Of a DNA stretch of 64,000 nucleotides, positions 3,996-56,099 are shown in pieces. This DNA comes from an uncultured Anaerolineae bacterium (GTDB lineage: Bacteria > Chloroflexota > Anaerolineae > VGOG01), in contig CAZEBW010000004.1 of assembly GCA_964510205.1 (NCBI GenBank), forward strand, positions 3,638 through 67,637. The letters run 5' to 3'. Under the pieces are notes generated by a model. The model did no database searches, was not told the origin of the DNA, and saw only the letters and a list, made by a program, of their open reading frames with translations. The position numbers and the translations under genes were made by a program. The first letter of the stretch is position 1; each line of letters begins with the position of its first letter.

Positions 3996-5183
3996 ATGCC
4001 ACAAGTCGTCCTGAAACGAGGCCGTGAAAAACCTATCCTGAATCGTCACCCCTGGATCTTCTCCGGGGCCATCCAGCGCGTCGAGGGGGAGTGTGATGAC
4101 GGGGATGTGGTGGAGGTGGCCGACCAGCGGGGGCGCTTCCTGGCGCGAGGCTACCTAAACCGCCGCTCTCAGATCGCGGTGCGTCTCCTCACCTGGGATG
4201 AGGACGAGGTCATCGGGACGGACTTCTGGCGGCGTCGGCTGGAGCGGGCCTTCGCCAGCCGGCAGGCCCTGGCCGCTGATCCCTCCACCGACGCCTACCG
4301 CCTGGTCAACGCCGAGTCCGACCTACTGCCCGGCCTGGTTCTCGATCGCTACGGCGATTACCTGGTGGCCCAGTTTCTAACGCTGGGAATCGAGCGGTGG
4401 AAGGCCGAACTGGTTGGCCTGGCGGCTGATCTGCTGCAGCCCAGGGGCGTCTACGAGCGGAGTGACGCGGAGGTGCGGGAGAAAGAGGGATTGGCTGCGG
4501 TCAGCGGCCTGCTGCACGGCGAGCAGCCGCCGGACCTGGTGGACATAATGGAGAACGGCCACCGTTTCTGGGTGGACATAAAGGCGGGGCACAAAACCGG
4601 CTTCTATCTCGACCAGCGGGAGAACCGTGCCAAGCTGACCAGGTACTGTGCGGGCAAAGCGGTGCTCAACGGCTTCGCCTACACGGGGGCTTTCGCCGTC
4701 TACGCCGCTGCGGCGGGGGCGGGGCGCATCACCAATGTGGAATCCTCGGCCGAGGCCCTGGCGCTGGCCCGGCGCAACATGGCCCTCAACGGTTTCGCCG
4801 ACCGCGACGACGGGTACATTGAGGGGGACGTTTTTCAGGTGCTGCGGGGGTATCGCGATCAGGGGCGGACCTTTGAACTGGTCATCCTCGATCCGCCGAA
4901 GTTCGCCCACTCCAAGGCCCAGGTGCAGTCAGCCTGCCGGGGCTACAAGGACATCAACTTGCTGGCCATGCAGCTCCTGGCCCCCGGCGGCGTCCTGGCC
5001 ACCTTCTCTTGCTCAGGCCGGGTGAGCGCCGATCTCTTCCAGAAGGTGCTCTTCGGGGCCAGCGTGGACGCCGCCCGCGATGTGCAGATCATCGAGAAGC
5101 TGTCCCAGTCCTCCGATCACGCCATCCTGCTCACCTTCCCTGAGTCGGAGTACCTGAAGGGGTTTGTGTGTCGGGTGTTTTGA
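3996..5183 (+). CDS. rlmI: 23S rRNA m5C1962 methyltransferase RlmI (PUA + class I SAM MTase)
   Basis: Near-collinear similarity to E. coli RlmI from N-terminus (KRGREKPILNRHPWIFSGAI) to C-terminus (EYLKGFVCRVF). Confidence 0.88.
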   Translation: MPQVVLKRGREKPILNRHPWIFSGAIQRVEGECDDGDVVEVADQRGRFLARGYLNRRSQIAVRLLTWDEDEVIGTDFWRRRLERAFASRQALAADPSTDAYRLVNAESDLLPGLVLDRYGDYLVAQFLTLGIERWKAELVGLAADLLQPRGVYERSDAEVREKEGLAAVSGLLHGEQPPDLVDIMENGHRFWVDIKAGHKTGFYLDQRENRAKLTRYCAGKAVLNGFAYTGAFAVYAAAAGAGRITNVESSAEALALARRNMALNGFADRDDGYIEGDVFQVLRGYRDQGRTFELVILDPPKFAHSKAQVQSACRGYKDINLLAMQLLAPGGVLATFSCSGRVSADLFQKVLFGASVDAARDVQIIEKLSQSSDHAILLTFPESEYLKGFVCRVF

Positions 5184-11840: not shown

Positions 11841-13340
11841 TCATGGAAGCGGTGGCAGTAGTATCCTATTGATGGTTATGCCCCACTGGTCACTTCTTCG
11901 TTCAAGCCCTTCCATTAGTTGCTGGCATGCTGTGGCCTTGTTCGGCGGATCATGTACATCCTGTTGCCTGTATCCACATAACGCCTCATTCAGGAGCACG
12001 GCCATTTCCTGCACGATTTCTTTGTCCCAAATAGTCTTCATGTCGGCTTCGGTCAGTTTTTTCTTCTTGGTCTTCTTGTGGTTATTCTCACCAGATTCTC
12101 TAAAGAAGTGAGGTGCATGAACCGCTTTTTCCTTATTGACCTGGTAGTAAACTACTGGGGCAAGCTGCAAGACCCCATCTGCTAGTGCGACTTTCTGTTT
12201 GGGGCAACGGCATCTCAGCTCCATGGTCGGGATTACAGCTTGAATTTGGCTGTACAAGGGAAGCTGAAGAATACTTTGACCTTCTTCCAGCACCCTGATT
12301 TCGCGACTGTCTCCGATCACAGCAATCCTGTCGGGTGGGACGGTGAAGGTGAACGCCCTGTATCCAACGAGCACCAGAAGGACAAGCAAGAGTGGCAAGG
12401 CCGTACCCGCGGCAGTCAAGACAACGATGTGCAGTGAACTGCGCACGGAAAGCAGTATGCTCGCCAGCAGCATCAGTAGTACAATGACCACAAAGCCTGC
12501 CAACGCGCTGACAAAGGCGAGCACAGGGCTGGACAGTATTAGGTTGATGGCATCGCGAGCGTATGTGAGCAATGTCTCGAGTTGAATAGCAAGCGATGGT
12601 GGAGATTGCTCCGCCGCTCCGTCCTTCTCCTGCTCTGACGGCCTCATGCCTTGCGGACTGGCGTCTCCAGGTGGAAGGGATTCTTCGTCAATGTCCTCTG
12701 AGTTCATGGCTAGTCGTTCCGTCGTTTGCTCAGGCATACTCTCTTCACCCTCCTCTTGTTTTTGCTTCGCCTCTTGGCCTGACGGCTCCGTTTGTACGGG
12801 ACCAGCTCTTCCACGTCGAAGCGGTCCTCCGCCGGTATCTCCTGAATCCATGGCTACTTGTTGGTCTCGCAGGATCTTCCGGTATCGTGACTCGACTGTG
12901 CGCCTTAGGCGGCGGTCCATGTCCTGCAGCAGTTCCAGGCTGCGTGAACAGGCTTGACTTGCCTTGAGCCATTTGCCTTGGGCCTCGCACACCGTGGCCA
13001 ATCCAAAGAGGGCTACTGCTTGACTATGTTTGTCACTCAGAAAGAAGCGAGTGCTCTCTTGATACTTGTTGGCTGCCTCATCCAAGTGTTCCTGAGCGTG
13101 AAAGATAGCTGCGAGGTGAATAAGGGCTACCCCTTGAGCATATGAGTCATCCAACATGTCCAATTCGAGAGATCCTCTTGCTGATCTAATGCTTTGCTCA
13201 GCTATCGATTGGGCTGCTTTGTACCGGCCAGCTCGTCGCAGTTTGTCGGCCTCCTTGTTGAGCACGGTACCGCGATTAGTTCGTTCTCTTAGTTGGCGTA
13301 TGATCTGGTTGGCTTGTCGGTGGTAAGGATCGGATGTCAT
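11841..13340 (-). CDS. TPR-like / acidic linker / transmembrane / SPFH-like domain protein
   Basis: Likely start MTSDPYHRQ (rc ATG at 13338-13340). TPR-like helices, an E/D/Q-rich linker, two hydrophobic helices, then IAVIGDSREIRVLEEGQSILQLPLYSQIQAVIPTMELR...VVYYQVN resembling the start of an SPFH/band-7 domain. Confidence 0.5.
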   Translation of the reverse strand: MTSDPYHRQANQIIRQLRERTNRGTVLNKEADKLRRAGRYKAAQSIAEQSIRSARGSLELDMLDDSYAQGVALIHLAAIFHAQEHLDEAANKYQESTRFFLSDKHSQAVALFGLATVCEAQGKWLKASQACSRSLELLQDMDRRLRRTVESRYRKILRDQQVAMDSGDTGGGPLRRGRAGPVQTEPSGQEAKQKQEEGEESMPEQTTERLAMNSEDIDEESLPPGDASPQGMRPSEQEKDGAAEQSPPSLAIQLETLLTYARDAINLILSSPVLAFVSALAGFVVIVLLMLLASILLSVRSSLHIVVLTAAGTALPLLLVLLVLVGYRAFTFTVPPDRIAVIGDSREIRVLEEGQSILQLPLYSQIQAVIPTMELRCRCPKQKVALADGVLQLAPVVYYQVNKEKAVHAPHFFRESGENNHKKTKKKKLTEADMKTIWDKEIVQEMAVLLNEALCGYRQQDVHDPPNKATACQQLMEGLERRSDQWGITINRILLPPLP

Positions 13341-13419
13341 TGAAGTCCCCCCATAGAAGGAAAGCCCACCGGGATGCAGGAGAGTTGGGCCGGATAAACT
13401 AAGGTGTTCTGCGATATCG

Positions 13420-14727
13420 CTATGGGCTGCCAGGCGGCAATGCAATCGCTGATCTTATGGATTGCAGAGTGGCCATCACGTCGGAAGGCAGAAGGATCTT
13501 GGTCGCTGGATCGGAGGCCATTTTCTCCAGAGCTTCAATGAAACGCAAGGCTATGAATTGTGGAATCGGGATGTTCTTAGTCTCCATCTGACGGAAGCCT
13601 TCGGTGATGGCTATGATCATTCTAGTTTGAGCTTGTGCTCTGGCAACCTCAATCAGGTTATATACTTCAGCCTGTGCCTCGCCTTCAGTGATGAGGACTT
13701 GCTTGCGACTCTCCGCCATGCGCGCTTCCCAGTCTACTTGCCATTTCTTTTGCATTCCTTCCCTAATTTCCGGAGGCACCTCAATATTCAGCATCTGAAA
13801 GCTTATGATAGTGCCTCCCCAGCCTTCGGCTATCTTTCGCAGGGAATCTCGGACACGCTGCTTGATGTCGCTTTGAGGGAACGTGTTGGGATCCAGTGGG
13901 TCAAAGATATCATCCAAGTAACGTTTGCCAATCTCGTCGCGAAGCAGATTCTTGGCTACTTCGATAGTGGCGATTTCCCAGTCATAGCTATCGTAGGTAG
14001 CTTTGAGGACCGCCTCTCTAGAGAATGGATAGGGCTTCTCTGGGTTCCACACCTTGGCTGGATCCTGCGCGATGCGGAATAGAACGCTATAGTGGATGGT
14101 CACCGGTATGCCATCTTTGGTTGAGGCATTATCTAGCGTTCCTCTCCTGAACCGTTTCCGTGTGACGATGACCTTCCTGATACTTTCAAAAGGCTTGGTG
14201 CGCACTGCACCGGGCCCCTCAATGCGAGTGAATTTCCCCATCCGCTCGAAGACAACGGCTTGCTCGTTGCGTATTACGATCAAATTGGCTACCTTGAAGC
14301 CGGCGAGTGCGCCTTTGGACTTCACCTCGTCCACTTGGCCATCTTCAACGATGATGTAGCTTCCCAGGAATAGCTCTCCGGTGACAAAAGAGAGTAAATA
14401 CCGAAAGCAGTCCCACTGATTGCCGCCCCGGCTGACCAGTATGAGTTGCGAGGCCAGAAACAGGAGACTGCCTGTTAAGAATAGATAGACAGCCAGCCCC
14501 AATACTGCCCCCGTCAGGCCTCTCGTGACGAAGGAGAAGGTCAGAAACACCCCACTTGCAGTGAAGAATATCGCCAGCGCCACGCCCTTGCTCTGGCCCA
14601 TCCTGACAAGACACCCAAGGGAGACCACAGCGAGCCATACTAGGCCCCATTTGGGCTCGTGAACTACAGAGACTAAAATCAGTAGTGGAAGCAGGGCTAC
14701 GGACAACACAAGCAAGATCTTCTTCAT
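13420..14727 (-). CDS. SPFH/band-7 (stomatin/HflKC-like) domain membrane protein
   Basis: N-terminal 4-5 TM helices, then NEQAVVFERMGKFTRIEGPGAVRTKPFESIRKVIVTR...TKDGIPVTIHYSVLFRI (SPFH core) and a coiled-coil tail; start MKKILLVL. Confidence 0.7.
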   Translation of the reverse strand: MKKILLVLSVALLPLLILVSVVHEPKWGLVWLAVVSLGCLVRMGQSKGVALAIFFTASGVFLTFSFVTRGLTGAVLGLAVYLFLTGSLLFLASQLILVSRGGNQWDCFRYLLSFVTGELFLGSYIIVEDGQVDEVKSKGALAGFKVANLIVIRNEQAVVFERMGKFTRIEGPGAVRTKPFESIRKVIVTRKRFRRGTLDNASTKDGIPVTIHYSVLFRIAQDPAKVWNPEKPYPFSREAVLKATYDSYDWEIATIEVAKNLLRDEIGKRYLDDIFDPLDPNTFPQSDIKQRVRDSLRKIAEGWGGTIISFQMLNIEVPPEIREGMQKKWQVDWEARMAESRKQVLITEGEAQAEVYNLIEVARAQAQTRMIIAITEGFRQMETKNIPIPQFIALRFIEALEKMASDPATKILLPSDVMATLQSIRSAIALPPGSP

Positions 14728-14903
14728 AGCACAAGCTCTCCTTGTTTCTGTCAGCACTCTTAAGGTACGTGAGACTGCCGTCCAGTGCGTTCAACACGAG
14801 CTTATCTGACGGCGCCACAGGTATCACCCAGTTTCCATAGATCGAGGCAAAACCAAAAGGCCGCGGCTCGATATCGAAAACGTTTTGCAATGAGGGTGCT
14901 CAC

Positions 14904-16418
14904 TCAGCTCTGGGCGATCAAAATGGGGGAAGCCCAAGTCAAGTCATCCTTATTACGCATTGCCAGCTCTCGCCGGGCATCCAGCAGTGCCAGTTCAGGG
15001 CTGCCGTGCTGGAGCATAGAACGATAGAACGCCAGTGCCATTTCCTTGGCGCTCACTGCCGGCACTGACCACCTGTAGCCCAAAACAGACGGCACCCCTG
15101 ATTGGATAATTCCATCAGCGATACCCAGGTAGTCATCGTCCAGCAAATCAACCGGGCTGCCGGTACGAGTGCCCTCGCAGCACGTCAGGTGAAACAAACG
15201 GGTGTCAGAATCTTCCAACAGCCATCTCAGCTCATTTCCGGTCATTGGCTTTATATTCCCTGACCGGTTGCTGTCTTCCCAGAAGAACAATCTGCTCTGT
15301 TCCGGAGACCCCTCGTGAAAGACTCCGTGACCAACATAATGCACGATGTGATGCTTACACCCACGGAGCATTTCTTGCACTGCACTGTATGTAGCTGCTT
15401 CGGTTCTGACATGAGTCAAATCCAACCAGTTCAGTGGCGACAGCAAATCCACCAACTCTTCTCCGATTTTGTCAATCAGATCAATGCGTGGCTCAGTGTT
15501 GGACACGAGCAGTAGAACACGCAGGTTCTCGCCTGAACTGGCGAGACGTCGTATGAGTTCAGCAGAGATGGGTTCACGCCTCGTCACTACGCCTCGAATT
15601 TGGCGGACCATTGGATGGAGCAGTGTAAGGTAATCACCAGCCTCATCGGAAAAGATGAACTCCAGTGGCAATCCTGCCAGATCTCGGGTGGATTCAAACA
15701 CGAGGTGCAAGTATTGGTTCATTTGCGTCCTACCGAGTGCTCGGTGATACCCGTTGAGTACCGCAGAGTGCTGTTCGAACAGCAGGCGGTATAGCTCCCG
15801 TCCCACGTCTTTGATCAGAAAGCGGCGGTCTGCTGTGCTCATCATGCGTTCGCTTCCCCAGCGTGCAAAACGTGGAGCGTCGAGGCTTAGTGGATTGACA
15901 GAGGTGTATGTGAAGCGGATGTTGCCACGGCCCCGCACAAGAAGTCGCTGCCCTGGCTCTAGCGAGATTGTAATTTCGCACTCTTGGCTCGGCTCAAAGA
16001 CCGGCAATTGCCATTTCAATGACCTACTGATCACGCTATCCATCACTTTAACCACATCTTCTATCATGGTCTTTGGGAGGTACTCGGCTACAAGTCGCCG
16101 TCCAGTTGCATCAGGTTCCAGGGCGCGCCTCATCGTGTCAGGGGTACCATAGCCGGTGATAATGACAATCGGGAGCCCAGGGAATCGTCGTTTAAGCTCA
16201 GCAGCTAGATCAAGGCCTTCTAGGTTGCCTTCATCTGTCTCGTCCAAGCGCATGTCAAGTAGGGCTGCGTCGAAATGCTCTCGGTCAGACAAATCCAGGG
16301 CTCGCGCAACACTGGCAGCCGTTTTGGTTGCGTAGCCCTCGTCAATCAAGAGTTGTGAAAGGGTCACTCGCCAGTCAAACAAATCATCTACGATAAGCAC
16401 CTGGATTTGTTTAGTCAT
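14904..16418 (-). CDS. Response-regulator receiver fused to CHAT (caspase-like) protease domain
   Basis: REC: ILIVDDL...FDAALLDMRL...ITGYG...YLPKT. CHAT: IVHYVGHGVFH (catalytic His) and LFHLTCCEGT (catalytic Cys), C-terminus ALLDARRELAMRN...WASPILIAQS. Confidence 0.75.
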   Translation of the reverse strand: MTKQIQVLIVDDLFDWRVTLSQLLIDEGYATKTAASVARALDLSDREHFDAALLDMRLDETDEGNLEGLDLAAELKRRFPGLPIVIITGYGTPDTMRRALEPDATGRRLVAEYLPKTMIEDVVKVMDSVISRSLKWQLPVFEPSQECEITISLEPGQRLLVRGRGNIRFTYTSVNPLSLDAPRFARWGSERMMSTADRRFLIKDVGRELYRLLFEQHSAVLNGYHRALGRTQMNQYLHLVFESTRDLAGLPLEFIFSDEAGDYLTLLHPMVRQIRGVVTRREPISAELIRRLASSGENLRVLLLVSNTEPRIDLIDKIGEELVDLLSPLNWLDLTHVRTEAATYSAVQEMLRGCKHHIVHYVGHGVFHEGSPEQSRLFFWEDSNRSGNIKPMTGNELRWLLEDSDTRLFHLTCCEGTRTGSPVDLLDDDYLGIADGIIQSGVPSVLGYRWSVPAVSAKEMALAFYRSMLQHGSPELALLDARRELAMRNKDDLTWASPILIAQS

Positions 16419-17205
16419 GGCTGCTATCCGTGGGAGTTTCTATGGCTTTGATCACAGGGAGTGTGATCGCTATCGTCGTGCCGTGGCCAATCTCAGTATG
16501 TTTTACACTAATCTCTCCACCAAACCTGGCAAGTATCAAATGCGCTAACCAGAGACCCAGGCCCTTGTTGGTCCCGGTTGACGGAATCGGACCCTGAAAA
16601 AGATCGGCAAGAATGAGTTGCGGTATCCCTGTTCCGTTATCTGCAATCTCTACTCGCACTGTGTTGTCCGCGTCCACGTACTGGGTATGGATGTCAATAT
16701 GTCCGGGTTTTTTGCTTGTTGCTTGGATCGAGTTTTCGAGCACCGCCCGGAAAACCTCCGCGAGCAAGTGGCTATCAGCACGCACGGGAGGGACATCCTC
16801 TGGAAAATCAAAACTCACCCGTACTGTCTTGGAAGTGTGGCTAGCAGAAAGTTCTTCCCAGACCTCATACAGCAGTGAGTTTACGTCTAAGGGCATAGGC
16901 GGCTCACTCGGCTCTCTGAGTACTTCGACGGCGGCACTTAATTCGCTCAAACTGCTAATGGTCTTTTCTATGGCTGTGACCAGGTCGAGGGCGGCTCTAT
17001 CGTTGCTATTGATGTATTCCTTAAGACGACCGACTCGAACTCCCAGCAACCCAGTCAAGTTGGAGAGCTGGTGCAGTAATGCAGCAGAAGCCATCCCCAG
17101 TGCAATGAGGCTGGCCTCCTCCCCGTGGCTACGGTTAGGATGTGCACTTTCTTGCGGTAGGGGTGGATTTGGTCTCTGACTTTCCCGGTCATTTGGTGGA
17201 CTCAT
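16411..17205 (-). CDS. Cytoplasmic sensor histidine kinase (DHp + HATPase_c, no TM or sensor domain)
   Basis: H-box AALLHQLSNLTGLL; N, G1 (ADNGTGIP) and G2 (GLGLWLAHLI) boxes. Confidence 0.75.
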   Translation of the reverse strand: MSPPNDRESQRPNPPLPQESAHPNRSHGEEASLIALGMASAALLHQLSNLTGLLGVRVGRLKEYINSNDRAALDLVTAIEKTISSLSELSAAVEVLREPSEPPMPLDVNSLLYEVWEELSASHTSKTVRVSFDFPEDVPPVRADSHLLAEVFRAVLENSIQATSKKPGHIDIHTQYVDADNTVRVEIADNGTGIPQLILADLFQGPIPSTGTNKGLGLWLAHLILARFGGEISVKHTEIGHGTTIAITLPVIKAIETPTDSSHD

Positions 17206-17241
17206 TTGTCGGATTCTCCCAAGCGCGGCGCGTCCTTCAGT

Positions 17242-18768
17242 TCACTCCTGATGAATCAAGATAGGCGACAACCAGGTTGGATCGTTTCTGTCCATAGCGG
17301 CCAGCTCGCGCCTTGCGCTCCAGAGGGCGAACTCCGGCCCCCCTTGCTCCAATAAGGACTGGTAGAAAGCCAACGCCAGCCGACGGGCTCCATCATCTGA
17401 CACAGGCCAGCGGAAGCCCAGCACCGAGGGTGCGCCGGCCTGCGCGACAGCGTCGGCCAGCCCAAGGAAATCGTCATCCAGCAAAGCAGCCTGAGCGCCG
17501 CTGGCTGTGCCATAGCAACTGCTCATGTACACCAGACGTGCTTCCGAGCGCCTGAGTAGCATCTTTAGTTCGGTTGCTTTCATCGGCATGACGCCACCTT
17601 GCTTATTCTCCTGGGCCCAGAAGTATAGGCTGCTATCTTCAGGGGACTCGGTCCTGTACGAGCCATGTCCTGCGTAATGTACAATGTCGTAACTGGGCTT
17701 CCCCAACTCTGATCTTACGCGCTCATACGTGGCGCGCTCCGTGGGGATGAGTTTAACACTGACAGGGATGCAGTCCTGGCTCTTTAAGTACTCGTACAGT
17801 GCCTGCGCCTCGGCATCTACGCCGTCTATTGGAGGCTGTGTGTTAGAGGCGATAATCAGAATTCGCAATTCCTGAGTCAGTGCCAGCAGCGAAGGGGAAA
17901 TCAGGCTGCGTTTCGGGGTAGCATTGTATAGAAAACGGGCGAGGGGGTGTTGAAGTACCAGGTACTCTGGAGGATCATCCGAGCGCATAAATTCCAATGG
18001 TAGTCTGAGAAATTCCCTGGGCGTCTCAAAAAGCATTGAAAACGACTGGCTCTTGGCGCGCGCTTCCACATAGGCTTTTTCGGCTTCAGGGTGCTCAGTA
18101 AATATGTCACGCCACAGACTGTGGCCGATCTCCCCAACCTGGAAACGCAAATTGCTCACGTCTCTTCTGGCGAGTTCTGTCCGCCTTGCATAGCGTTCGA
18201 GTGCCACACGCAACACTTTCCACGAGCGCAAGGAACAGACGTGGCGACCGCGCGCCCTGATCACCAGAGGCTGTCCGGCTGTGAGTGATAGAGATAGCTG
18301 GGTAGCATCACCTGTCTTCTCAAACCTCGGCTTGGTTGCCTCCTGGCGTGCTTTCGCGATAGTCTCCAGAACTTGTTCAGCCACATCCGGGGTTTTTTCG
18401 ATGAAGTCAACTACTCCGAGATATCGAATCGCGCGTACAATTTGCTTGGTTCTCGGGTAGCGTGTGAGCAGGATGACGCGAACCCGCGGATTGAGGGCGC
18501 GGAATGCCATCGCCAGGCTCAATCCGCTTTCGTCCTCTTCATCATCTCCGTGCAGGCGCACGTCAATGAGAGCAAAGTCGAACGGTTCTTGCGTGACAGC
18601 AACCAGGGCTTGTTCCTCGTTGGCCGCTGACCGGACGGTGTATCCTTCATCGGAAAGTCGCCCTGCTAACGTGGTACAGAAATCGGCATGGTCATCTACT
18701 ATCAGAATCTTGCACATTGCTACCCTCTTCATCAACTGTCTGATGGGACGCTCCGGGTCATCCAGCAT
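17242..18768 (-). CDS. Response-regulator receiver fused to CHAT protease domain (second copy)
   Basis: REC: KILIVDDHADF...FDFALIDVRL...LTRYP...IEKT. CHAT His IVHYAGHGSY and Cys LVYMSSCYGT; start may be the internal M (MCKILIV). Confidence 0.75.
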   Translation of the reverse strand: MLDDPERPIRQLMKRVAMCKILIVDDHADFCTTLAGRLSDEGYTVRSAANEEQALVAVTQEPFDFALIDVRLHGDDEEDESGLSLAMAFRALNPRVRVILLTRYPRTKQIVRAIRYLGVVDFIEKTPDVAEQVLETIAKARQEATKPRFEKTGDATQLSLSLTAGQPLVIRARGRHVCSLRSWKVLRVALERYARRTELARRDVSNLRFQVGEIGHSLWRDIFTEHPEAEKAYVEARAKSQSFSMLFETPREFLRLPLEFMRSDDPPEYLVLQHPLARFLYNATPKRSLISPSLLALTQELRILIIASNTQPPIDGVDAEAQALYEYLKSQDCIPVSVKLIPTERATYERVRSELGKPSYDIVHYAGHGSYRTESPEDSSLYFWAQENKQGGVMPMKATELKMLLRRSEARLVYMSSCYGTASGAQAALLDDDFLGLADAVAQAGAPSVLGFRWPVSDDGARRLALAFYQSLLEQGGPEFALWSARRELAAMDRNDPTWLSPILIHQE

Positions 18769-19639
18769 TCCCCCAATTTGCCTGTATGTAACTCGTTGTC
18801 GCCTTTACGTCCAGGCTGCGAGTCGAATTGCCAATACGCACCCAGAACTTGTGAACATCGCCCGTCGCCAGGAACACCGGCTTTGGGCTTTTTTCAATCG
18901 CAACGATGCAGACGTGTTTACCATCTATGGGTTCGAAGCGTGTGCGAATGTATGGCATATATTCTAGACCCACATAGGTCTTGACAATATCCGTCAATGC
19001 CAATTGAAACCCATCGGTATTTGGCTTGCGCAGAGTTTGTAAGTCTTTTTCAATACCTAGCACCGTGCCATCGTCAGCGACGCCAATGAGTAGGGTCCCA
19101 CCCTTGCTGTTCAACATTCCTGTGATTGCCACGGCGATCGTTTCCTGCAGGCTCTTGTTAGTTGTGTTTTTCTTGAAATCCCAGCGGATACTGGACTTGA
19201 ATTCCACGTGGTCATTTTCACCTTGGGCAATCAAATTGAGTACCGAGCGTTCAAATGCGCGGTTCACGTACTCCGGCAGTTGGTCTACTTCAGATTTTTC
19301 CAGGAAGCCAAACGCTGGTGATACTCCCTCGCGATCAGGTTGAAGGACCTCCCTCACCATCCTGACGTTTGCATAGCCGGTCAAGATAATGATGGCCACA
19401 TGGGGGTCCTTCTCTCTGATCTCGCGCATAAGCAAGATGCCATCTTGGTTGTCCTCGTCGGCCTCGTCCAAGCGCACGTCCAGAACTGCGACGTGAAAAC
19501 GCTCGGCGTCCAACATTTGCAGAGCCTCAACTCTGCTGGATGCCGAGCGTACTTCATAGCCTTCGTCTGACAAAAGGCCCGACAATGTTGCGCACACGTC
19601 GGGCAGGTCATCTACTACGAGAACGCGACCTTTGTACAT
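18758..19639 (-). CDS. Response-regulator receiver fused to an AlbA_2 (Schlafen-like) domain
   Basis: Likely start MYKGRVLVVDD. REC with VAVLDVRL; C-terminal ENDHVEFKSSIRWDFKKN...TLLIGVADDGTVLGIEKD matches the AlbA_2/Schlafen N-domain signature. Confidence 0.65.
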   Translation of the reverse strand: MYKGRVLVVDDLPDVCATLSGLLSDEGYEVRSASSRVEALQMLDAERFHVAVLDVRLDEADEDNQDGILLMREIREKDPHVAIIILTGYANVRMVREVLQPDREGVSPAFGFLEKSEVDQLPEYVNRAFERSVLNLIAQGENDHVEFKSSIRWDFKKNTTNKSLQETIAVAITGMLNSKGGTLLIGVADDGTVLGIEKDLQTLRKPNTDGFQLALTDIVKTYVGLEYMPYIRTRFEPIDGKHVCIVAIEKSPKPVFLATGDVHKFWVRIGNSTRSLDVKATTSYIQANWGNAG

Positions 19640-19665
19640 GGCACTCCTGCCGATTGCATCTTGTC

Positions 19666-20067
19666 TTATCGTGCCAACACTTCCTGTACTATCTTGACCA
19701 ACTCTTCGGTCTGGGTTTTCGGGATATAGTTCGCTACAAGTCTCCGGCCCTGCGTATCTGGCTCCATTGCCCGTCTCATGGTATCCGGCGTGCCGTAGCC
19801 TGTGATCATTACGACTTCGGTAGTGGGCCAATGTTGTTTGATCTCATCCGCCAGGTCCAGCCCCTCGGTGTTACTCTCGTCCGTCTCGTCCAGGCGCATG
19901 TCCAGTACTGCCAGATCAAAATGGCTGGTTTTGAGCAACTCCAATGCCGCAGGCGAAGACTCGGCAACCTGGACATCGTATCCCGCGTCCTCCAACAAGC
20001 CACCGAGCGTCGTGCGCCAATCTAGCAGGTCATCTACCACCAGAATCTTCTGCCGTTTGTTTGTCAT
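19666..20067 (-). CDS. Single-domain CheY-like response regulator (paralog of the REC of the 14904 REC-CHAT)
   Basis: ILVVDDL...FDLAVLDMRLDETDESNTEGLDLADEIK...ITGYGTPDTMRRAMEPD...YIPKT, almost identical to the REC of 14904-16418. Confidence 0.8.
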   Translation of the reverse strand: MTNKRQKILVVDDLLDWRTTLGGLLEDAGYDVQVAESSPAALELLKTSHFDLAVLDMRLDETDESNTEGLDLADEIKQHWPTTEVVMITGYGTPDTMRRAMEPDTQGRRLVANYIPKTQTEELVKIVQEVLAR

Positions 20068-20459
20068 TCTCTTACTCCTTCGTGCTTACCATGGCGATTA
20101 CGCGGCACCTGTGGAAACAGAATGATCTCCCTGACCTGCTCGAAGAGATCCTCGCTTCCGAAAGACTTGGCGAAGTAGCGCATGGCTCCCAACCGGTAGG
20201 CCGCAAGCGCCTCTTGGGTCGTGGGTTGTACTGTTGTTACGACCACCCGCTTATCAGAGTATTTCTCAGCGATGACTGCAAGCACGTCCAGGCGGCGGGA
20301 GCTTGCGATGACCAGGTCGAACTGATCCGCTTCGAGTTCAGCGAGTGCTGCCTTGGTGTCAGGCGCAACGACGATTTCAAACTTGTTGAGATCGCTCTTG
20401 GCGAACTCAATCCAGCGAGGTTCGTCGTCAATGATCAGAATGCGAGTTTTCATGATCAC
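20064..20459 (-). CDS. Atypical receiver-like protein (pseudo-receiver; phospho-acceptor Asp apparently replaced)
   Basis: ILIIDDEP present, but the expected D in FDLVI-A-SSRRL is Ala. Confidence 0.55.
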   Translation of the reverse strand: MIMKTRILIIDDEPRWIEFAKSDLNKFEIVVAPDTKAALAELEADQFDLVIASSRRLDVLAVIAEKYSDKRVVVTTVQPTTQEALAAYRLGAMRYFAKSFGSEDLFEQVREIILFPQVPRNRHGKHEGVRE

Positions 20460-23400
20460 ACCTCCTTTCCCGTCCCCGGCGCTGGGATCTGAACCAGCAT
20501 TGTTGTTCCAGTGGGATCGGTCTCTTCTATTATAGCATCACCGCCAATACTTTGCAACATCAGTCGGCTGAGCCAGAGACCCAGACCTGCCCCTCCGCCT
20601 GGCTCCTTGGATGGGACTGGTTTGACGAAGAGACGTTGCTGGACTTGCAGTGGGATGCCCGGTCCTGTATCCTGAACCCGCACACAGATATTACTGTCGG
20701 TCAGACGACTGGTAACTGCTAACTGGCCACCCGCCTTCATTGCTCGGTAGGCATTGTCAACCAAGTTGTAGAAGACCTCAGCGATCTGACCGATCGGGGC
20801 CCGAATCTGCGGCAGCGATTGATCCAGGTCTAGGGTATGTTCGATCGTTGATCGAATGGGATCCGTTCGCCACTGTTCTCTCACTTTACCCACCACGTCA
20901 CTCAGCACTGCGTTAATGTCCACATCCTGATCCTCGACCTCTCGCAGCGGTTCTTGAATGCGCGCGATGATATCCGACGTATAGCGGGCGTTACGTTCGA
21001 TGATGTCAAGGATCTCTGCAATCGTATCATTCGACATATCAACGCGCTTCCGCAGGCGCGTCACGTTGGGAACGATGATGTTGAAGGTATTATTGACACG
21101 ATGTTGTAAAGCTGCGATGGCCGTGCCCAGTGTGGCCAAGCGCTTGGTCGCGATGACTTCACTGCGTGCCTCCTCATATAACCGGGCATTCTCAAGGGCA
21201 ATGGCTGCCTGGTTGGCCATAGAGGAGATGACCTGCAAGTCCTGTTCATCGTAGGCCTGCTCTCTTTCCCAGTCGTAGATAGCGATCACGCCCAGAACCC
21301 TATTCTCCAGAACCATCGGGACACCTATCCAAGATTTGGCGACACGCCCGATGAACTCTTGATGTCCGGGCTGTCCATACCACGCTTTAGATTCCACTTG
21401 GGTGCGATGCAGGATTGGCTTCTTGGTAAGGATGACTTCTTCGGTCTTACCCCGCTTCTCCATATCAGCCTTGCGGGGATCGTAATGCACCTGCTCACCG
21501 TGCTCCGTTGCCAGACCGAAGCGGATCATCCCTGTTTCCTCGTCATACAGCGCGATGTACATGTCCTGTGCGCCGGTCAACTCCCTGGCCTGCTCGTAGA
21601 TTAGCTCCAGAATCTCATCTTGCTTCAGACGAATACCGGAGGTTAGTGCCTGTCCTACCTCATTCAGTGCCGCCAACGCCTGAACGCGCCGTGCGAGCTG
21701 CTGGTTGATCTCGTAGTAAAGCGTTGCATTATCCAACGCGATTGCCGCTTGGTTGGCCACAGAGGAGATGACCTGCAAGTCCTGTTCATCGTAGGCCTGC
21801 TCTCTTTCCCAGTCATAAATGGCGATCATACCCAGTACCTTCTCACCTGTGACCATGGGAACGCCCAAGTAAGAAGGCTGAACACGCCCGATGAACTCTT
21901 GATGTCCGGGCTGTCCATACCACGCTTTAGATTCCACTTGGGTGCGATGCAGGATTGGCTTCTTGGTAAGGATGACTTCTTCGGTCTTACCCCGCTTCTC
22001 CATATCAGCCTTGCGGGGATCGTAATGCACCTGCTCACCGTGCTCCGTTGCCAGACCGAAGCGGATCATCCCTGTTTCCTCGTCATACAGCGCGATGTAC
22101 ATGTCCTGTGCGCCGGTCAACTCCCTGGCCTGCTCGTAGATTAGCTCCAGAATCTCATCTTGCTTCAGACGAATACCGGAGGTTAGTGTCTGTCCCACCT
22201 CGTTCACTGCCTGTATAGCTTTATACAAGCGTGCGCTTTTAATAGCAACCGCTGCTGCCCCAGCTAGGGCCTCAACCAGACGCATGTGATCGTCTGTAAA
22301 GGCTCCGATTTGGGTACTCTCCAGATTGAGCGTTCCAATCACTCTGTCACGGTGTATCAACGGTGTTGTGAGTTCGGATTGTACTTCCTCAAACCACTCC
22401 TTGTAGTACGGATCGCTTTTGATATCGTTGCAAAGATATGTCTTTCTACTCAAGGCAACGTGTCCGTTGATGCTCGTCTCGTCTAGGGGTAGTCTCGTGA
22501 GGGTTCGCGTCGGCGTCTCATCCCTCTTGTTTCTCGCCCCAAATCGCAGTTCACGTGTCCGCTCGTCCAGCAACCAAATACTCGTATACTTGGCTGGCGT
22601 CAGCCTGGCCGCTTGCTCTGCGATTTGCTCCAGCAGATCCTCTAGGGAAGCAGTGCCAATGAGCGCGTATAGGTTCTGAAGAGCTCTGATATCATCAATT
22701 CGCTCTTGTAGGCTAGTCTGAGCCTCTTCGTACACACGGGCGTTATAGATAGCTGTCGCCGCTTGATTAGCGAACAGCTCGATAGCCCCCCGTTGCTCAG
22801 GAGTGAAGGGTTGTCGGCTCCGGTAATTGACGAACATAGCGCCCACGGTTTCGCCTGCTGCTTCGAGGGGGACGGCGGCTGACGATAGGATTCCCTCGCG
22901 CACTACAAAGCGCTTTTCCGGGCGCTCAGGGCGCTCTACGGTGAATGGGCCGGTGAGCAGGGTATCCGTCTGAGTATCGGGAGAGTAGAGGGGCTCTCCA
23001 CCCTCGACCACTTTCACAACGACATCATCCTTGAATATTTCGTCCTTGACAACTGTGGGGTCTCGGCGCTCTCCTTCCAAGATAGGTGGCATGATGTAAC
23101 GGTCATCCGCCTCAACGTACTGGTACACATCCACGAGATCGGCACCCAATACACTCCTGGCACTTCGCGCCACCTGACGCAATACCTCTCTCAACCCCTG
23201 TGCCGAAAGCTCAGCCGAGAGTATTCGTCCCCCAATCTGGTGCAGCCTCTGCAAGACTGCAGCCCGGCTGGTTGCCTGCTCAAGAAGTTGAGCATTGTGT
23301 ACAGCCACGGCGGACTGGCTGGCCACCGCCTCTAACAGCATCTGATCGTGCTCGTCAAAGCCGCTCAGCCCGTCCATATCAGCAGAGATCACCCCAATAA

Positions 23401-24193
23401 CCTCGTCTTGCAAGATTATGGGCGCCAGCACCATTGAGCGCTCGACGATGTCTGACGACAAACCGGGGACAAACTGAGGGTGCTTGACCGCATCCGGGAC
23501 GAGTTCTGATTGCTTGGTTTGGGCTACCCACCCGGCCAACCCGACCCCTTGGGCGAACTGCTGTCGTGCGATGCCTGCTGACGAGGCAGCTTCCAACGCT
23601 AGGTCACCGCTCTTATCCACTAGAAAAACGCTGATGTGCTTGCAATCCAGCACTCTTTCTGCGGCTTGCATAATGCGTGCGAAAAGATCGGCACGGCGCA
23701 ATTCGGAACTGATCAAGAGGCTCACTGCGTTCAGGGTCGCCAGATCCTGAATTCGACGCTGCGTGGCAGCCACTTGAGCGGAAGAACTCTCAATCAGCGC
23801 CTTCTCGAAATCAGTGAAATCCCTTGCCTCACGGGTATAAACGTCAAGCACACCAACGATTTTCCTTTTTACTCGTAGTGGTACCACCATAGCCGACTTC
23901 AGTCCCATAGCGGTGGTTTCTGGTTTGTACTTCCAGCGAGCATCGGTGTCAACGTCTGTCACGACGATTGCCTGTTCAGTCGCAAAAACGTCAGACGCGA
24001 CACTGGGCTCATCCAGGCGCAGAAACGCATCGCGAACGTATTCCTCTGACAACTCTGTCGCTGCAGCGATCCGGAGGGTTTCCCCCGTTTCATCGGCAAG
24101 CCAGATACAGGCCGGCAGTCCCAGAGTCTGGCTTATGGTCTCCACCACGGGTTGAAAGAACTGCTTTTTATCAAGTTCTTGAGAGGGGATCAT
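20456..24193 (-). CDS. Large cytoplasmic multi-GAF-domain sensor histidine kinase (1245 aa)
   Basis: At least 5-6 GAF-like modules, coiled coil, H-box ALQHRVNN, HATPase_c (DTGPGIP...GLGLWLSR); no TM helices. Confidence 0.8.
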   Translation of the reverse strand: MIPSQELDKKQFFQPVVETISQTLGLPACIWLADETGETLRIAAATELSEEYVRDAFLRLDEPSVASDVFATEQAIVVTDVDTDARWKYKPETTAMGLKSAMVVPLRVKRKIVGVLDVYTREARDFTDFEKALIESSSAQVAATQRRIQDLATLNAVSLLISSELRRADLFARIMQAAERVLDCKHISVFLVDKSGDLALEAASSAGIARQQFAQGVGLAGWVAQTKQSELVPDAVKHPQFVPGLSSDIVERSMVLAPIILQDEVIGVISADMDGLSGFDEHDQMLLEAVASQSAVAVHNAQLLEQATSRAAVLQRLHQIGGRILSAELSAQGLREVLRQVARSARSVLGADLVDVYQYVEADDRYIMPPILEGERRDPTVVKDEIFKDDVVVKVVEGGEPLYSPDTQTDTLLTGPFTVERPERPEKRFVVREGILSSAAVPLEAAGETVGAMFVNYRSRQPFTPEQRGAIELFANQAATAIYNARVYEEAQTSLQERIDDIRALQNLYALIGTASLEDLLEQIAEQAARLTPAKYTSIWLLDERTRELRFGARNKRDETPTRTLTRLPLDETSINGHVALSRKTYLCNDIKSDPYYKEWFEEVQSELTTPLIHRDRVIGTLNLESTQIGAFTDDHMRLVEALAGAAAVAIKSARLYKAIQAVNEVGQTLTSGIRLKQDEILELIYEQARELTGAQDMYIALYDEETGMIRFGLATEHGEQVHYDPRKADMEKRGKTEEVILTKKPILHRTQVESKAWYGQPGHQEFIGRVQPSYLGVPMVTGEKVLGMIAIYDWEREQAYDEQDLQVISSVANQAAIALDNATLYYEINQQLARRVQALAALNEVGQALTSGIRLKQDEILELIYEQARELTGAQDMYIALYDEETGMIRFGLATEHGEQVHYDPRKADMEKRGKTEEVILTKKPILHRTQVESKAWYGQPGHQEFIGRVAKSWIGVPMVLENRVLGVIAIYDWEREQAYDEQDLQVISSMANQAAIALENARLYEEARSEVIATKRLATLGTAIAALQHRVNNTFNIIVPNVTRLRKRVDMSNDTIAEILDIIERNARYTSDIIARIQEPLREVEDQDVDINAVLSDVVGKVREQWRTDPIRSTIEHTLDLDQSLPQIRAPIGQIAEVFYNLVDNAYRAMKAGGQLAVTSRLTDSNICVRVQDTGPGIPLQVQQRLFVKPVPSKEPGGGAGLGLWLSRLMLQSIGGDAIIEETDPTGTTMLVQIPAPGTGKEV
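21209..22290. repeat. 540-bp tandem duplication (2 copies) of one GAF module inside the histidine kinase gene, with a ~320-nt 100% identical core
   Basis: 21343-21662 equals 21883-22202 at nucleotide level (the + strand ORFs 21359-21604 and 21749-22144 translate identically); flanks ~75-85% identical. Confidence 0.75.
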
Positions 24194-24228: not shown

Positions 24229-25569
24229 TCAATTATGAGGTTGGTGTCTCCAGACTTCCAATGACTCCCTATATCCCGCTTCCGAAAATGCTAACCCCTT
24301 CTCCCTCAGCATCATAGCGGTGAGAAGGTGAGGTAATCCTTTCTTCTTTTCCAGGAAGACGATTTGTGGGCCGGAAAGCGTACGCCTACCATTCTTCTTC
24401 AGGAATTGCATGAGCTGGCGACGTCCGCGCTCAACGGTCTTTAAGAAACGCTGTGCCTCGGTTGAGAAATAGGATTCCAGTTTCTCCTCGTCCTCCGGCG
24501 CCGCTCGCGAAGCGTTGCGCACTGTTTGGGAAATGCAATCTATCAGTGTGGGTAGAAACCCCCTGGTTTCGATGCCCAGAACAATCTGCCGCGTTACGAC
24601 ACCTCGAATCAATAGCTTAATGAGACGCTCTCGCCCATTCTTACCTGGAGGTGGAGCGCCATCTGCGACTAGGAAATACAGCGCCTTTAGATAATCTGCC
24701 ATCACATGTTCGCTGGCAGTGATCAACGATTCTGGCAGGTCAGGTGCGCGAACGAGACTATGTATGGTGTCTGTGATCGGTTGGTAACTACTTATCTCAA
24801 ACACTGATTGAGCATCTTGCAGGATCATTGCCACGCGCTCAGTGCCAATCACCGTTTCGAAGAAAGGCTCCGTCATCGGTTGGAGCCTTTGGGTCTTAGT
24901 GTCTATCTCGGTGCTGACAAAGAGTGAATTGGCGAATTCAACGAACCGACCGCACTGGCAAGGCGGCCGACAATCGGGGCCGCAGCCAAAGACCGCGCCT
25001 CGATCAAAGAACATCTCAGTATTGGGCCCGCATTTACGATAGCGAACTACCCCTTCAATGCCATTTCCTTGTTTCCAGAGGTTGTCCTTGACTCCCAGAC
25101 CTATGATCTGCTCTTCAGGCATCCCGATACTCCGCCAAGCTTGATGAGCCTCTACATCCTCGTCAAACGCATGCTTTGAAATCTTACCCCCGGCGAAATA
25201 AGTGACCCATATGTTGTCTGGCTTGATTCTCAGGTTTGAGGTCATGAACTCCCACATTTGCTGGATAACAGTTGCCTTGCTGAGAGCATTAAAGGAAAAA
25301 GCGGCGGGCATTTCAAACAAGCTTAGGTGCACATTGTCGGTTCCAACGGTGTCAATGTCGAAATATCTGAAGCACTTTTGCACCAGTGCATACTTATGCC
25401 CGGCACGCTTGCCCATCTGATCAAGAGCCTTTTCAAATTGCGGTAATCCAGCACTCATTACGAACGACATAGGAATAGAGGGATGCAACAGCGAGGCACT
25501 AGGCAGAACGGAGAATCCTTTGCCCTGGTAATAATCGAGGAACGTTTGGCTAATGGCTGGGGATCGCAT
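24229..25569 (-). CDS. Alanyl-tRNA synthetase catalytic-fragment paralog (AlaRS N-terminal ~441-aa-like, divergent)
   Basis: SQTFLDYYQGKGFSVLPSASLL...QFEK...VQKCFRYFDIDTVG...HLSLFEMPAAFSF...GKNGRERLIKLLIRG is collinear with the AlaRS N-terminus (FLDFF..GH..VPS..LLFTNAGM..QKCIR..D.VG..HHTFFEML.NFSFGDYFK..GNEGRGYVLRRIIRR). No editing or C-Ala domains; several canonical motif residues are changed. Confidence 0.6.
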   Translation of the reverse strand: MRSPAISQTFLDYYQGKGFSVLPSASLLHPSIPMSFVMSAGLPQFEKALDQMGKRAGHKYALVQKCFRYFDIDTVGTDNVHLSLFEMPAAFSFNALSKATVIQQMWEFMTSNLRIKPDNIWVTYFAGGKISKHAFDEDVEAHQAWRSIGMPEEQIIGLGVKDNLWKQGNGIEGVVRYRKCGPNTEMFFDRGAVFGCGPDCRPPCQCGRFVEFANSLFVSTEIDTKTQRLQPMTEPFFETVIGTERVAMILQDAQSVFEISSYQPITDTIHSLVRAPDLPESLITASEHVMADYLKALYFLVADGAPPPGKNGRERLIKLLIRGVVTRQIVLGIETRGFLPTLIDCISQTVRNASRAAPEDEEKLESYFSTEAQRFLKTVERGRRQLMQFLKKNGRRTLSGPQIVFLEKKKGLPHLLTAMMLREKGLAFSEAGYRESLEVWRHQPHN

Positions 25570-33781: not shown

Positions 33782-34810
33782 ATGATATCGGTCATTAGAA
33801 AAGCAGTTCTCCTGGGCGTGGTACTGGGCCTGCTGAGCCTTGCTGGCTGCGACTTCGGCGACCTGTTGGCAGGGAGAGGGACGCCGACGCCGAACATACC
33901 TGATCTCAGTGAGCTGGTCCCCGATGACTGGACCATCGAGAAAAGAGTGGAAGTAGACGTTGACGGGGACAGCGAGGTCGAGTGGCTCGTCATCTACCGC
34001 TACGACAAATCTCCCAGAGGCTTCGGCGGCCCTCTGGGGGGCGTGATTTATGACCGCCAGCCCGACAGGTCGCCCGAGAATCTGGCCACGCCGGAGCCGT
34101 ACCGGCCGTCCATTCTGGTGGCTTACCACCTCTTGCCGGGGAAGGGCGGAAAGGGCTATTTGGGGGAAAACCTGGGCGGCGAGGATACGCCCTGGCCTAG
34201 AGTGGCGCAATATGATGCCAACGGGGATGGCCGCGAGGAACTGGTGATCCTGGGCTACTCCTTTCCCGGTTTCCCCACTAGCCTGGCCATCTTCCGTTGG
34301 GTGGATAGGCAGAGAGGCTATGAGACTCTGATCCGCACAGAGGGCGAGGGCGCAGACGTGCTGTGGGGCGATGCCGGGGTCGAGCTGAAACCCGCCTTTG
34401 GCGAGGGGCCTATAGGAACGGTCATCGTGAGAAGCAGGCTGCATCACCCCTACTGGTATCTGCGTAGTCAGATTGGCCGCCGAATCGTTTACGAGTGGGA
34501 TGATGCCCAGACGAAGCTGGTGAAGAAATCCGAAAACATTGATTTCGTCTTTGGTCGCCCTCGGGGCGCCGAGCAGTCCAAGCAGAAGCAGTACCCCGTG
34601 GCCTATCCCGAGGCTGCCGTGCTGGCGTACTACGAAGATGGGCGCATAGAGGACATCGTTGCTGTGCAGGAAAACGAGGACGGGGAGGCTAAGGTGAACG
34701 TGCGACTGACGGTTGATGGCCAGCTTGTGGAGGATGTCTGTAGCCTCACCAGGAAATCCACCGGAAAGGTGAAGGACGTGACAAAGTGGGAGGTGAGTTG
34801 TCCGGAATGA
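33782..34810 (+). CDS. Hypothetical lipoprotein
   Basis: Signal peptide + lipobox LSLAGC. Confidence 0.5.
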
Positions 34811-34815
34811 TGTCT

Positions 34816-34890
34816 GTGATTCGTAGGTTCGTAGATTCGTAAATTCGTGGGTTCGTAGATTCGTAAGTTCGTAGATTCGTGTTACCGACT
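34816..34890. repeat. Tandem array of 8-mers RTTCGTRR x8
   Basis: gattcgtaggttcgtagattcgtaaattcgtgggttcgtagattcgtaagttcgtagattcgtg. Confidence 0.9.
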
Positions 34891-34902: not shown

Positions 34903-36216
<1,314 letters not shown>

Positions 36217-36973: not shown

Positions 36974-38437
36974 CTAGACAGACTCTTCCAGCTCCGGACG
37001 AGCCTCTTCTGTCAGCCTGGCGGCAGCCACCGCCAAACCGATGTACAGCCAGAACAGGGCCACGGCGTGGGGGAAGCTGAAGAGGTAATGGTCGAGGATG
37101 CCGCCTATCAGTCCCCCCACCACGGCTGTTTGAAGACCCAACAGGATGGCCTCCAAACGCGGATCGTGCTCCATGTTTTTCCAACTGCGCCAGGTATACC
37201 TGAAGAAGATGGCCATGATGACCAAGAACACGCCCAGCCCCACCAGGCCCATCTCCTCGGCGATGAGCAGGTAGAGGCTGGATACGCCCAGGTAGATGTC
37301 TATATCGGGCGTGCCGATGAAGCCTACGCCGATCCAGGGGTAGCGGCTGATGAGGATGAAGGCGTCTTTGTACTCCCCCAGACGCATTTGGCTGGCCAGG
37401 TCTTGAAACTGCACTCCCTCGGTGAAGTGTATGACGTATTCTCGCGTCTGCGGCAGGAGCAGGACGAGCAGGCCCGCAGCAGCCAGCACGGGCAACAGGC
37501 GGCGATACTTGATCACGGCCAGCAGGACCAGGGCGCAGCCGAGGCCGGCCATTGAGCCTCGCGAGAAGGTCAGAATCAGACAGAGGCCCATCGCCGCCAA
37601 CATGGGTGCGGCCAATGTGCGCTTCAGGAGCGGGCGCCGCGTGAAAAGCTGGGGGACGGTCAGCGACGCCACCAGGATCAACAGGCCGCCCAAAATGTTG
37701 GGGTCCACGGAGGTGCCGATGGCCCGCATGGGCAGCGAGGGGTCGTCGCGGATGAAGCGCAGCACCCCCCAGCCGGCCGGGTAGTTGAAGACGCGCAGGG
37801 CGGAGAGGAGGCGGACGGTGAGGGCGCGGGGCAGGAGATAGAGCACCACGCCAATCAGGGCTTCCCCGAAGCCGGCCAAGATGATGACCAGCACCAACTG
37901 CTCCAGCTCCTTGCGGGTGCGCACGCAGTTGACCGTTACGAAAAACAGGGCGATGCCCATGATGATCTCGGCGAAGCGGCGCACGGCGTTGGGCGTGGGA
38001 CTGGCGTGGGCCAGGCCGGCCACGAAGGAGACGAAGGCCAGGAACAGGAAAATGACGATGGGCAGGGCCAAAGGGGAGGTCACGAACTCCTGCTGCTGGC
38101 CGGTGACCAGGTGGGCCAGCCAGACGGCGAACAGCACCGCCAGCACCAGGTTCGGAAAAGTGGGGGTGAAGCCGATCTTGATGGGCAGGGCGCCGAAGGG
38201 CAGCAGGCAGACGATGCCGATGAGGGCCATGAAGCCGAATTGAGTGCTCTGCAACATCATCAGTCCGCTGACAAGCGCCATCACCAGGGCCGCCGTGATC
38301 AGCGGGCCGGGATAGGCGATCAGCCATCCCCCGATGATTCCCAGCGCCAGGCAGAGGGCTATCACCGCCAGGGCCACCACCCAGCGCTTGTCGGATACGA
38401 AAATGGATTGTAGGCGGTTGTAGGTGGAGTTTTGCAT
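36974..38437 (-). CDS. O-antigen ligase / O-antigen polymerase family membrane protein
   Basis: 487 aa, ~11 TM helices with a large periplasmic loop typical of the Wzy_C family. Confidence 0.55.
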   Translation of the reverse strand: MQNSTYNRLQSIFVSDKRWVVALAVIALCLALGIIGGWLIAYPGPLITAALVMALVSGLMMLQSTQFGFMALIGIVCLLPFGALPIKIGFTPTFPNLVLAVLFAVWLAHLVTGQQQEFVTSPLALPIVIFLFLAFVSFVAGLAHASPTPNAVRRFAEIIMGIALFFVTVNCVRTRKELEQLVLVIILAGFGEALIGVVLYLLPRALTVRLLSALRVFNYPAGWGVLRFIRDDPSLPMRAIGTSVDPNILGGLLILVASLTVPQLFTRRPLLKRTLAAPMLAAMGLCLILTFSRGSMAGLGCALVLLAVIKYRRLLPVLAAAGLLVLLLPQTREYVIHFTEGVQFQDLASQMRLGEYKDAFILISRYPWIGVGFIGTPDIDIYLGVSSLYLLIAEEMGLVGLGVFLVIMAIFFRYTWRSWKNMEHDPRLEAILLGLQTAVVGGLIGGILDHYLFSFPHAVALFWLYIGLAVAAARLTEEARPELEESV

Positions 38438-38448
38438 AAAGACCTCCG

Positions 38449-38580
38449 GGGTTCGTAGATTCGTAAATTCGTAAATTCGTAAATTCGTAGATTCGTAGAT
38501 TCGTGGGTTCGTGGATTTGATCCCGAATTTATGAGTCCCGAGTCTACGAATCTACCAGTTTCACGTTTCACGTTTTACGG
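38449..38580. repeat. Composite repeat block: TTCGTAR x9 direct, inverted partial copy, then TTTCACG x3
   Basis: gttcgtagattcgtaaattcgtaaattcgtaaattcgtagattcgtagattcgtgggttcgtgg ... tctacgaatctac ... tttcacgtttcacgttttacg. Confidence 0.9.
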
Positions 38581-56074: not shown

Positions 56075-56099
56075 CTTTCCTTCCATTCGCTTCTCTTGC

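Follow-up and report, generated by a model that had tools for sequence, protein, structure and literature searches.

Introduction

How do two neighbouring domains of a single protein come to be encoded by the same letters over some three hundred nucleotides and by thoroughly different letters immediately beside them? The question is raised by a 64-kb window of an uncultured Anaerolineae bacterium (contig CAZEBW010000004.1, positions 3,638 to 67,637; all coordinates below are those of the window), which carries on its minus strand a gene for a sensor histidine kinase of 1245 amino acids (aa) (20456..24193) with six GAF domains, after which come a predicted DHp domain and a HATPase_c domain. The last two GAF domains, GAF5 (21695..22219, minus strand, aa 659-833) and GAF6 (21155..21679, minus strand, aa 839-1013), form what we call an AB-type pair, in which GAF5 is unit A and GAF6 is unit B. 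The two are 87% identical at the amino acid level and are encoded by a direct repeat whose two copies start exactly 540 nt apart, in frame with the kinase gene. A first-pass annotation, made from the sequence alone, took this repeat for a recent 540-bp tandem duplication. The explanation that we favor, and hold to be probable, is instead a recent intragenic gene conversion between two ancient tandem units.

A mosaic of identity between GAF5 and GAF6

The longest exact run at an offset of 540 nt measures 307 nt and joins 21882..22188 in the GAF5 copy (aa ~669-770) to 21342..21648 in the GAF6 copy, both on the minus strand. The first-pass annotation had placed a perfect core of 320 nt at about 21343-21662; the identity holds and the length does not, as mismatches fall at 21649, 21656 and 21662. 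Directly below this core lies a patch of 67 nt (21275..21341, minus strand, VAKSWIGVPMVLENRVLGVIAIY in GAF6) that differs at 29 positions from its GAF5 counterpart (21815..21881, minus strand, aa ~771-793, VQPSYLGVPMVTGEKVLGMIAIY), an identity of 57% over the last beta hairpin of the domain. Below the patch, identity returns: 65 nt of the GAF6 copy (21210..21274, minus strand) match the GAF5 copy (21750..21814, minus strand, aa ~794-815) with a single mismatch, including an exact run of 54 nt. Outside ~21186-21667, identity at this offset falls to background (~25-30%) and the linkers are unrelated. The flanks, earlier described as 75-85% identical, are instead a mosaic in which a divergent patch and a near-identical tract give way to background beyond. 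The repeat had also been recognized from identical translations of open reading frames (ORFs), and it is indeed real; the ORFs in question (21359-21604 and 21749-22144) are antisense, the kinase gene being on the minus strand.

The aligned copies differ at 105 of 579 sites, and in 20,000 shuffles of these differences the longest exact run was 64 nt, against the 307 nt observed; the identity of the tract is therefore not due to chance, and an analytic bound for a run of this length is ~1e-24. For the second, 65-nt tract the chance probability is ~2e-11, given the divergence outside the core. No third copy of the repeat was found in the 64-kb window, and a self-BLASTP of the kinase returned only the trivial full-length match. 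Tandem Repeats Finder (TRF) gave no rows for the repeat interval, its period limit of 500 lying below the 540-nt period. The 540-nt repeat is not a head-to-tail array.

Old copies, probably recent homogenization

The proportions of synonymous (pS) and nonsynonymous (pN) differences between units A and B change abruptly along the repeat. Across the 102 codons of the core pS is 0 and pN 0.004; across the 23 codons of the patch they rise to 0.74 and 0.31, and in the 24 codons after the patch they fall again to 0.22 and 0.017. The two linkers (23 and 21 codons) resemble the patch, with pS values of 0.64 and 0.73 and pN values of 0.47 and 0.52. Third codon positions account for 17 of the 29 differences in the patch, no base is favored among them, and the patch divergence is synonymously saturated. 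Because patch and linkers are saturated and the junction between the units is common to relatives (see below), the duplication must be old and only the homogenization recent. The figure of 87% identity between the two domains is hence no sign of a young duplication. The second half of the earlier proposal, that the mosaic reflects gene conversion following an older duplication, gains support from both the pS contrast and the run-length test.

A diversity-generating retroelement, with its template and variable repeats (TR/VR), was considered as the origin of the patch and rejected: such an origin would confine the differences to adenines of one copy, whereas in each copy all four bases are found among the 29 mismatches.

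The AB-type pair in related kinases

Apart from an identical NCBI protein (P0001, 100%), the nearest relative found in a protein search for homologues is 73% identical to the kinase, and the best match among GTDB representative genomes is 56% identical. The homologues are kinases that each have 4 to 10 GAF domains, and they come mostly from metagenome-assembled genomes (MAGs) of Chloroflexota/Anaerolineae. Against a hidden Markov model (HMM) of the repeat unit, AB-type GAF domains score 200-300 bits (284 for GAF5 and 280 for GAF6) and other GAF domains less than 75 bits; judged by these scores, the AB-type GAF domain is a discrete subtype. Two AB-type units per protein is the commonest state, found in 43 of 75 homologues; 14 have one unit, 5 have three, 1 has four and 12 have none. 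The comparison of GAF copy number among related strains that had been proposed as a check thus does reveal variation, from 0 to 4 AB units in the 75 homologues, but this variation is between species only and no same-species strain was found.

The A-to-B junction of the window (21653..21718, minus strand, LYYEINQQLARRVQALAALNEV) is part of the long helix linking both GAF domains and recurs in relatives. The junction peptide LYYEINQQLARRVQALAALNEVGQ and the 180-aa spacing are present in P0008, P0014, P0004, P0020 and P0027, all from independent assemblies, and the A/B pairs of the relatives bearing this peptide are themselves 55-85% identical. Given this conserved junction and spacing, the pair is ancestral and its two-copy state is no invention of the assembly. 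Among 30 adjacent AB pairs in 76 species-representative genomes pS ranges from 0.2 to 0.8, with most values at 0.6-0.8, and in many relatives it is saturated across the whole AB unit.

The AB units fall into two subtypes, type I and type II, that are ~50% identical to each other. In 37 proteins both units of the pair belong to one type (homotypic); the two exceptions are the heterotypic pairs of P0014 (I-II) and P0047 (II-I). Orthologues in synteny may have a pair of either type. Family-wide, columns that distinguish position A from position B are clear in the C-terminal linker alone, and the linkers of the window fit that consensus. In the patch, no such signature was found across 43 pairs, and a weak one is seen within the type I subfamily.

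A pattern of concerted evolution in the window and in other genomes

If conversion acts on these units, partners within a protein should resemble each other more closely than their counterparts elsewhere do. Within a protein A and B are typically 55-89% identical and A-to-A identity between proteins can be ~50%; for 21 of 86 AB units the nearest neighbor is the unit's own partner. Unit A of the window is 87% identical to unit B of the window, compared with 51-82% to unit A of other proteins. At the protein level this closeness is confined to the tract: in the core, window A matches window B at 102/102 residues and relatives at 53-88/102, whereas in the patch it matches relatives at 14-19/22, mostly above the 13/22 that it shares with its own partner. 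Within-genome paralogues are thus closer than orthologues in the tract and not outside it.

We also asked whether the B patch could be left over from a type II unit and rejected the idea, as the aligned B patch is closest to those of the type I relatives P0038 and P0055 (18/22).

The window is not alone in this behavior. Exact A/B runs with a shuffle p of <=0.003 reach 418 nt at locus L003, 307 nt in the window, 97 nt at L012, 78 nt at L008 and 65 nt at L014; at L048, on a contig of 2.85 Mb, the run is 54 nt, with 95% identity over 150 nt, and this locus stands outside the shuffle test. Clustered identical tracts of up to 418 nt thus recur independently in at least five other genomes. The L003 tract extends over the hairpin patch, whose counterpart in the window remained divergent, from which it follows that the hairpin patch is not universally protected. 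This tract lies at 4441-4858 of an Anaerolineales MAG contig (CAZZEX010000021.1), between the two AB GAF domains of an orthologous kinase at an offset of 534.

A model of intragenic conversion and its alternatives

Starting from what is observed (the mosaic, the age of its flanks, the antiquity of the pair and its recurrence in relatives), we infer a recombination mechanism of the following kind. GAF5 and GAF6 are an ancient tandem AB-type pair in a kinase from a genome of Anaerolineae type (Chloroflexota). Homologous recombination between the diverged copies would recently have overwritten ~310 nt of one copy with the sequence of the other, in a non-reciprocal, intragenic event within one chromosome or between sister chromosomes. 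The second tract of ~65 nt may have been left by patchy repair of the same heteroduplex or by another event, so that one or two events may be involved. The 67-nt beta-hairpin patch and both linkers would have escaped conversion and kept their old, saturated divergence, and unequal crossing-over on the same recombination substrate could account for orthologues having gained or lost AB units. The outcome would be two sensor domains with identical N-terminal two-thirds, differing only in the last hairpin and the connecting helices. The N-terminal two-thirds of a GAF fold includes the ligand-pocket side, and the likely functional consequence would be two sensors that are identical but for the hairpin.

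Several points weigh against this account. Consensus calling or bubble-popping in a metagenome assembly could overstate the exactness of the identity. With the nearest relative at 73% and no same-species strain found, neither timing nor copy-number polymorphism is directly observable. The direction of transfer is equivocal, in that for 9 relatives it is their unit A that the core resembles more closely and for 6 their unit B, and the A-versus-B signature of the patch is weak (11:3 for window A, 9:5 for window B). Finally, repeated independent duplication and loss could mimic part of the family-wide pattern.

The alternative that survives best, although we consider it improbable, is an assembly artefact, in which either a single-copy gene was expanded as a strain chimera or two similar cores were collapsed to one consensus that was used twice. 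The source is probably a metagenome-assembled contig (the identical protein P0001 is encoded on a single contig of 92,483 nt), the relatives are all MAGs, and a 307-nt exact repeat is longer than typical k-mer sizes. The caution voiced at first pass, that the repeat is an assembly hazard, is therefore plausible, and short-read assemblers can collapse or mis-polish such a repeat. Against an artefact, the kinase ORF is intact and in frame at the repeat, with two complete GAF folds, and each copy has its own flanks joined by an A-to-B junction like that of independently assembled relatives. Two copies is moreover the commonest state in the family, and comparable tracts occur in other assemblies, multi-megabase contigs included. 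The copy number of two looks genuine.

We give still less credence to a truly recent tandem duplication of the 540-bp GAF unit, after which the patch and linkers would have diverged fast and locally or been replaced. The exact, in-frame period of 540 nt and the 307-nt identical core are what such an event would leave, and the variable number of AB units in the family indicates that duplications do occur. A single recent duplication, however, predicts uniform near-identity, and the observed mosaic, running from 57% to 100%, rejects it. The patch is saturated with mostly third-position differences and has no A-specific mutational bias; the linkers fit the position-specific consensus of the family; and the A-to-B junction is not newly created, being conserved in relatives. 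The first-pass dating of the duplication as recent is accordingly not supported, in view of the saturated pS of patch and linkers, the two copies in 43 of 75 homologues and the conserved junction.

Maintenance of the identity by selection on the nucleotide sequence itself, for example through an antisense gene or a structured RNA in both copies, is very improbable: antisense ORFs of 81 and 131 aa do overlap the two cores, but these are expected from any repeat in a coding region of 59% GC, and such selection cannot hold 307 nt free of synonymous change beside 67 saturated nt, nor does it fit tracts whose positions and lengths differ among relatives.

An exchangeable sensor cassette?

Beyond intragenic conversion, the AB pair as a whole may have had a history of its own. 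The kinase was compared with P0005, P0013, P0008 and P0019. P0005, its closest orthologue, matches it at 85-100% in aa 991-1245 and through most of aa 1-540, but identity drops to 33-63% in aa 661-990 (~21224-22213), a stretch that is exactly the two AB GAF domains. With P0008 and P0019 the pattern is reversed. Since the drop is limited to the AB pair, the history of the pair differs from that of the rest of the gene. The pattern suggests a cassette-like replacement of the pair or, alternatively, different homogenization and fixation by conversion. That the pair behaves as an exchangeable sensor cassette, rather than just as a passive substrate of recombination, is a speculative proposal that we regard as unlikely on present evidence. 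Were it true, exchange of the whole pair and then conversion within the gene would adjust what is sensed by a conserved pathway leading from the GAF-kinase to REC-CHAT and REC-SLFN (described below), and there would be selection for keeping the two sensors alike.

Domain organization and predicted structure of the kinase

The presence of a duplicated GAF module inside a sensor kinase, as first reported, is confirmed by Pfam matches. Six stretches each match GAF_2 (PF13185, 359.9 bits) and GAF (PF01590, 310.8 bits) above the gathering score, and GAF_3 (PF13492) matches too. HATPase_c (PF02518) scores 63.5 bits against a cut-off of 26.4, while Pfam HisKA has no match in the kinase. The DHp and catalytic ATPase domains (20456..21148, minus strand, aa 1016-1245) are predicted from Pfam, from alignment to a known structure and from a conserved histidine. 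The C-terminal 254 aa (aa 15-247 of the fragment) align to the DHp and catalytic (CA) domains of ThkA (3a0r) with E = 8e-16, and the motif H1031-R-x-N-N, the putative DHp phospho-acceptor site, is invariant in 14 homologues. The protein is, as far as its sequence indicates, a cytoplasmic six-GAF histidine kinase in which the AB pair stands directly before the predicted DHp/ATPase core.

An AlphaFold model of aa 652-1021, with a predicted local distance difference test (pLDDT) score of 81.6, has two GAF folds with a single long helix between them, continuous over model residues 152-201. In this model the core maps to residues ~18-119; it starts where the N-terminal helix ends and runs to the loop that precedes the last hairpin. 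That hairpin (strands 123-131 and 134-143) is encoded by the divergent patch, and a loop and the start of the connecting helix by the second tract. The best Foldseek matches of the model are the GAF tandems of PDE6, PDE5, PDE2 and CyaB2 (E ~3e-15, template modeling (TM) score <=0.59). At the sequence level there is a weak match to the cAMP-binding Lcd1 GAF domain (5w10; E = 2.4e-5, 23% identity).

Relation to known systems

Concerted evolution of bacterial genes by RecA-dependent gene conversion is familiar from tufA/tufB and the rRNA operons. The AB units resemble these in having patchy identity tracts within diverged duplicates and within-genome paralogues that are closer than between-genome orthologues, but they differ in being domains 540 nt apart in one ORF, such that each conversion event must preserve both reading frame and fold. 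The GAF-A and GAF-B domains of PDE2, PDE5, PDE6 and CyaB2 are old, functionally differentiated paralogues, for which we know of no concerted evolution. Their structures (3lfv, 3mf0, 3ibj, 1ykd, 9cxi) share with our prediction the arrangement of two GAF domains and a long helix into the effector; sequence identity to the AB pair is 12-17%, and the AB pair follows four further GAF domains and feeds a histidine kinase.

The closest documented GAF analogue is found in Trypanosoma brucei, where gene conversion of GAF-A has occurred between the paralogous phosphodiesterase genes TbrPDEB1 and TbrPDEB2 (PMC2689650). There, as here, a GAF-sized segment has moved non-reciprocally between similar coding sequences that lie close together and left a mosaic of identical and diverged stretches. 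The trypanosome case concerns two eukaryotic genes, whereas the present one concerns two domains of one bacterial kinase gene and recurs across a family.

The closest bacterial concept is that of the Periscope proteins (PMC8201768, PMC9704523), which sit on the bacterial surface and contain tandem domains that are identical in DNA sequence and vary in number. High-identity tandem domains that serve as recombination substrates and a variable copy number (1-4 AB units here) are common to both. Periscope proteins, however, have extracellular stalks with many near-identical repeats and lengths that vary between strains, whereas the kinase is a cytoplasmic sensor that usually has two units, patchy identity and variation between species only. 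Pfam finds only GAF and kinase domains in it and no surface-anchor domain, which places it outside the Periscope group.

A full-text literature search found no report of concerted evolution in histidine-kinase GAF arrays or domain repeats. As concerted evolution of tandem repeats is itself well known, the kinase is a modest addition, a new example of a known process. Its value would lie in offering a clean case, open to dating, in which gene conversion within one gene has altered the sensory input of a bacterial two-component kinase, and in the independent occurrence of conversion in several lineages of Anaerolineae, where the AB GAF unit has also been gained and lost.

Gene neighborhood and positional orthology

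Four REC-containing genes, candidates for cognate receiver partners of the kinase, follow directly downstream of it on the same strand (17242..20459). By their Pfam matches these are a REC gene that overlaps the kinase stop (20064-20459, minus strand), a second REC gene (19666-20067, minus strand), a REC-SLFN/AlbA_2 gene (18758-19831, minus strand) and a REC-CHAT gene (17242-18768, minus strand). Within 14904-20459 on the minus strand, this first REC-CHAT gene is followed by genes for a 264-aa HATPase_c protein and a second REC-CHAT protein, and then by SPFH and TPR proteins (11841-14757).

Upstream of the kinase lies a gene for a 446-aa tRNA-synt_2c protein (24229-25569, minus strand) whose match to class II alanyl-tRNA synthetase (AlaRS) is restricted to the N-terminal catalytic part. 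This AlaRS-like gene matches 33 related loci (E <= 1e-8), and in the 14 listed it stands directly upstream of a multi-GAF kinase. The order AlaRS-like, kinase, REC, REC, REC-SLFN, REC-CHAT is kept in several Anaerolineae MAG loci, among them L001, L002, L004 and L017. Loci with this common gene order are, by the evidence of synteny, positional orthologues, yet they carry from 1 to 4 AB units, which is the pattern expected of unequal crossing-over between AB repeats.

Other repeats in the window

Several further repetitive features lie elsewhere in the window. Two arrays, each with about eight copies of the 8-nt unit TTCGTARA, are located at 34818-34880 and 38452-38517; a 22-nt pattern gave 12 matches where 0 were expected. 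The first array, which is upstream of ORF 34906-36216, overlaps the end of ORF 33782-34810, and the second overlaps the 5' end of a Wzy_C/O-antigen-ligase-like ORF (36974-38437). At 38882-49234 on the minus strand are four consecutive paralogues of PMT_2/DUF2142-type membrane glycosyltransferases (702, 781, 780 and 1103 aa), between which patches that are 60-78% identical in nucleotide sequence recur every ~2.4-2.6 kb. Lastly, a 763-aa LVIVD-repeat beta-propeller protein with 12 repeats is encoded at 53849-56140 (minus strand), where the DNA contains a family of 126-nt periodic repeats.

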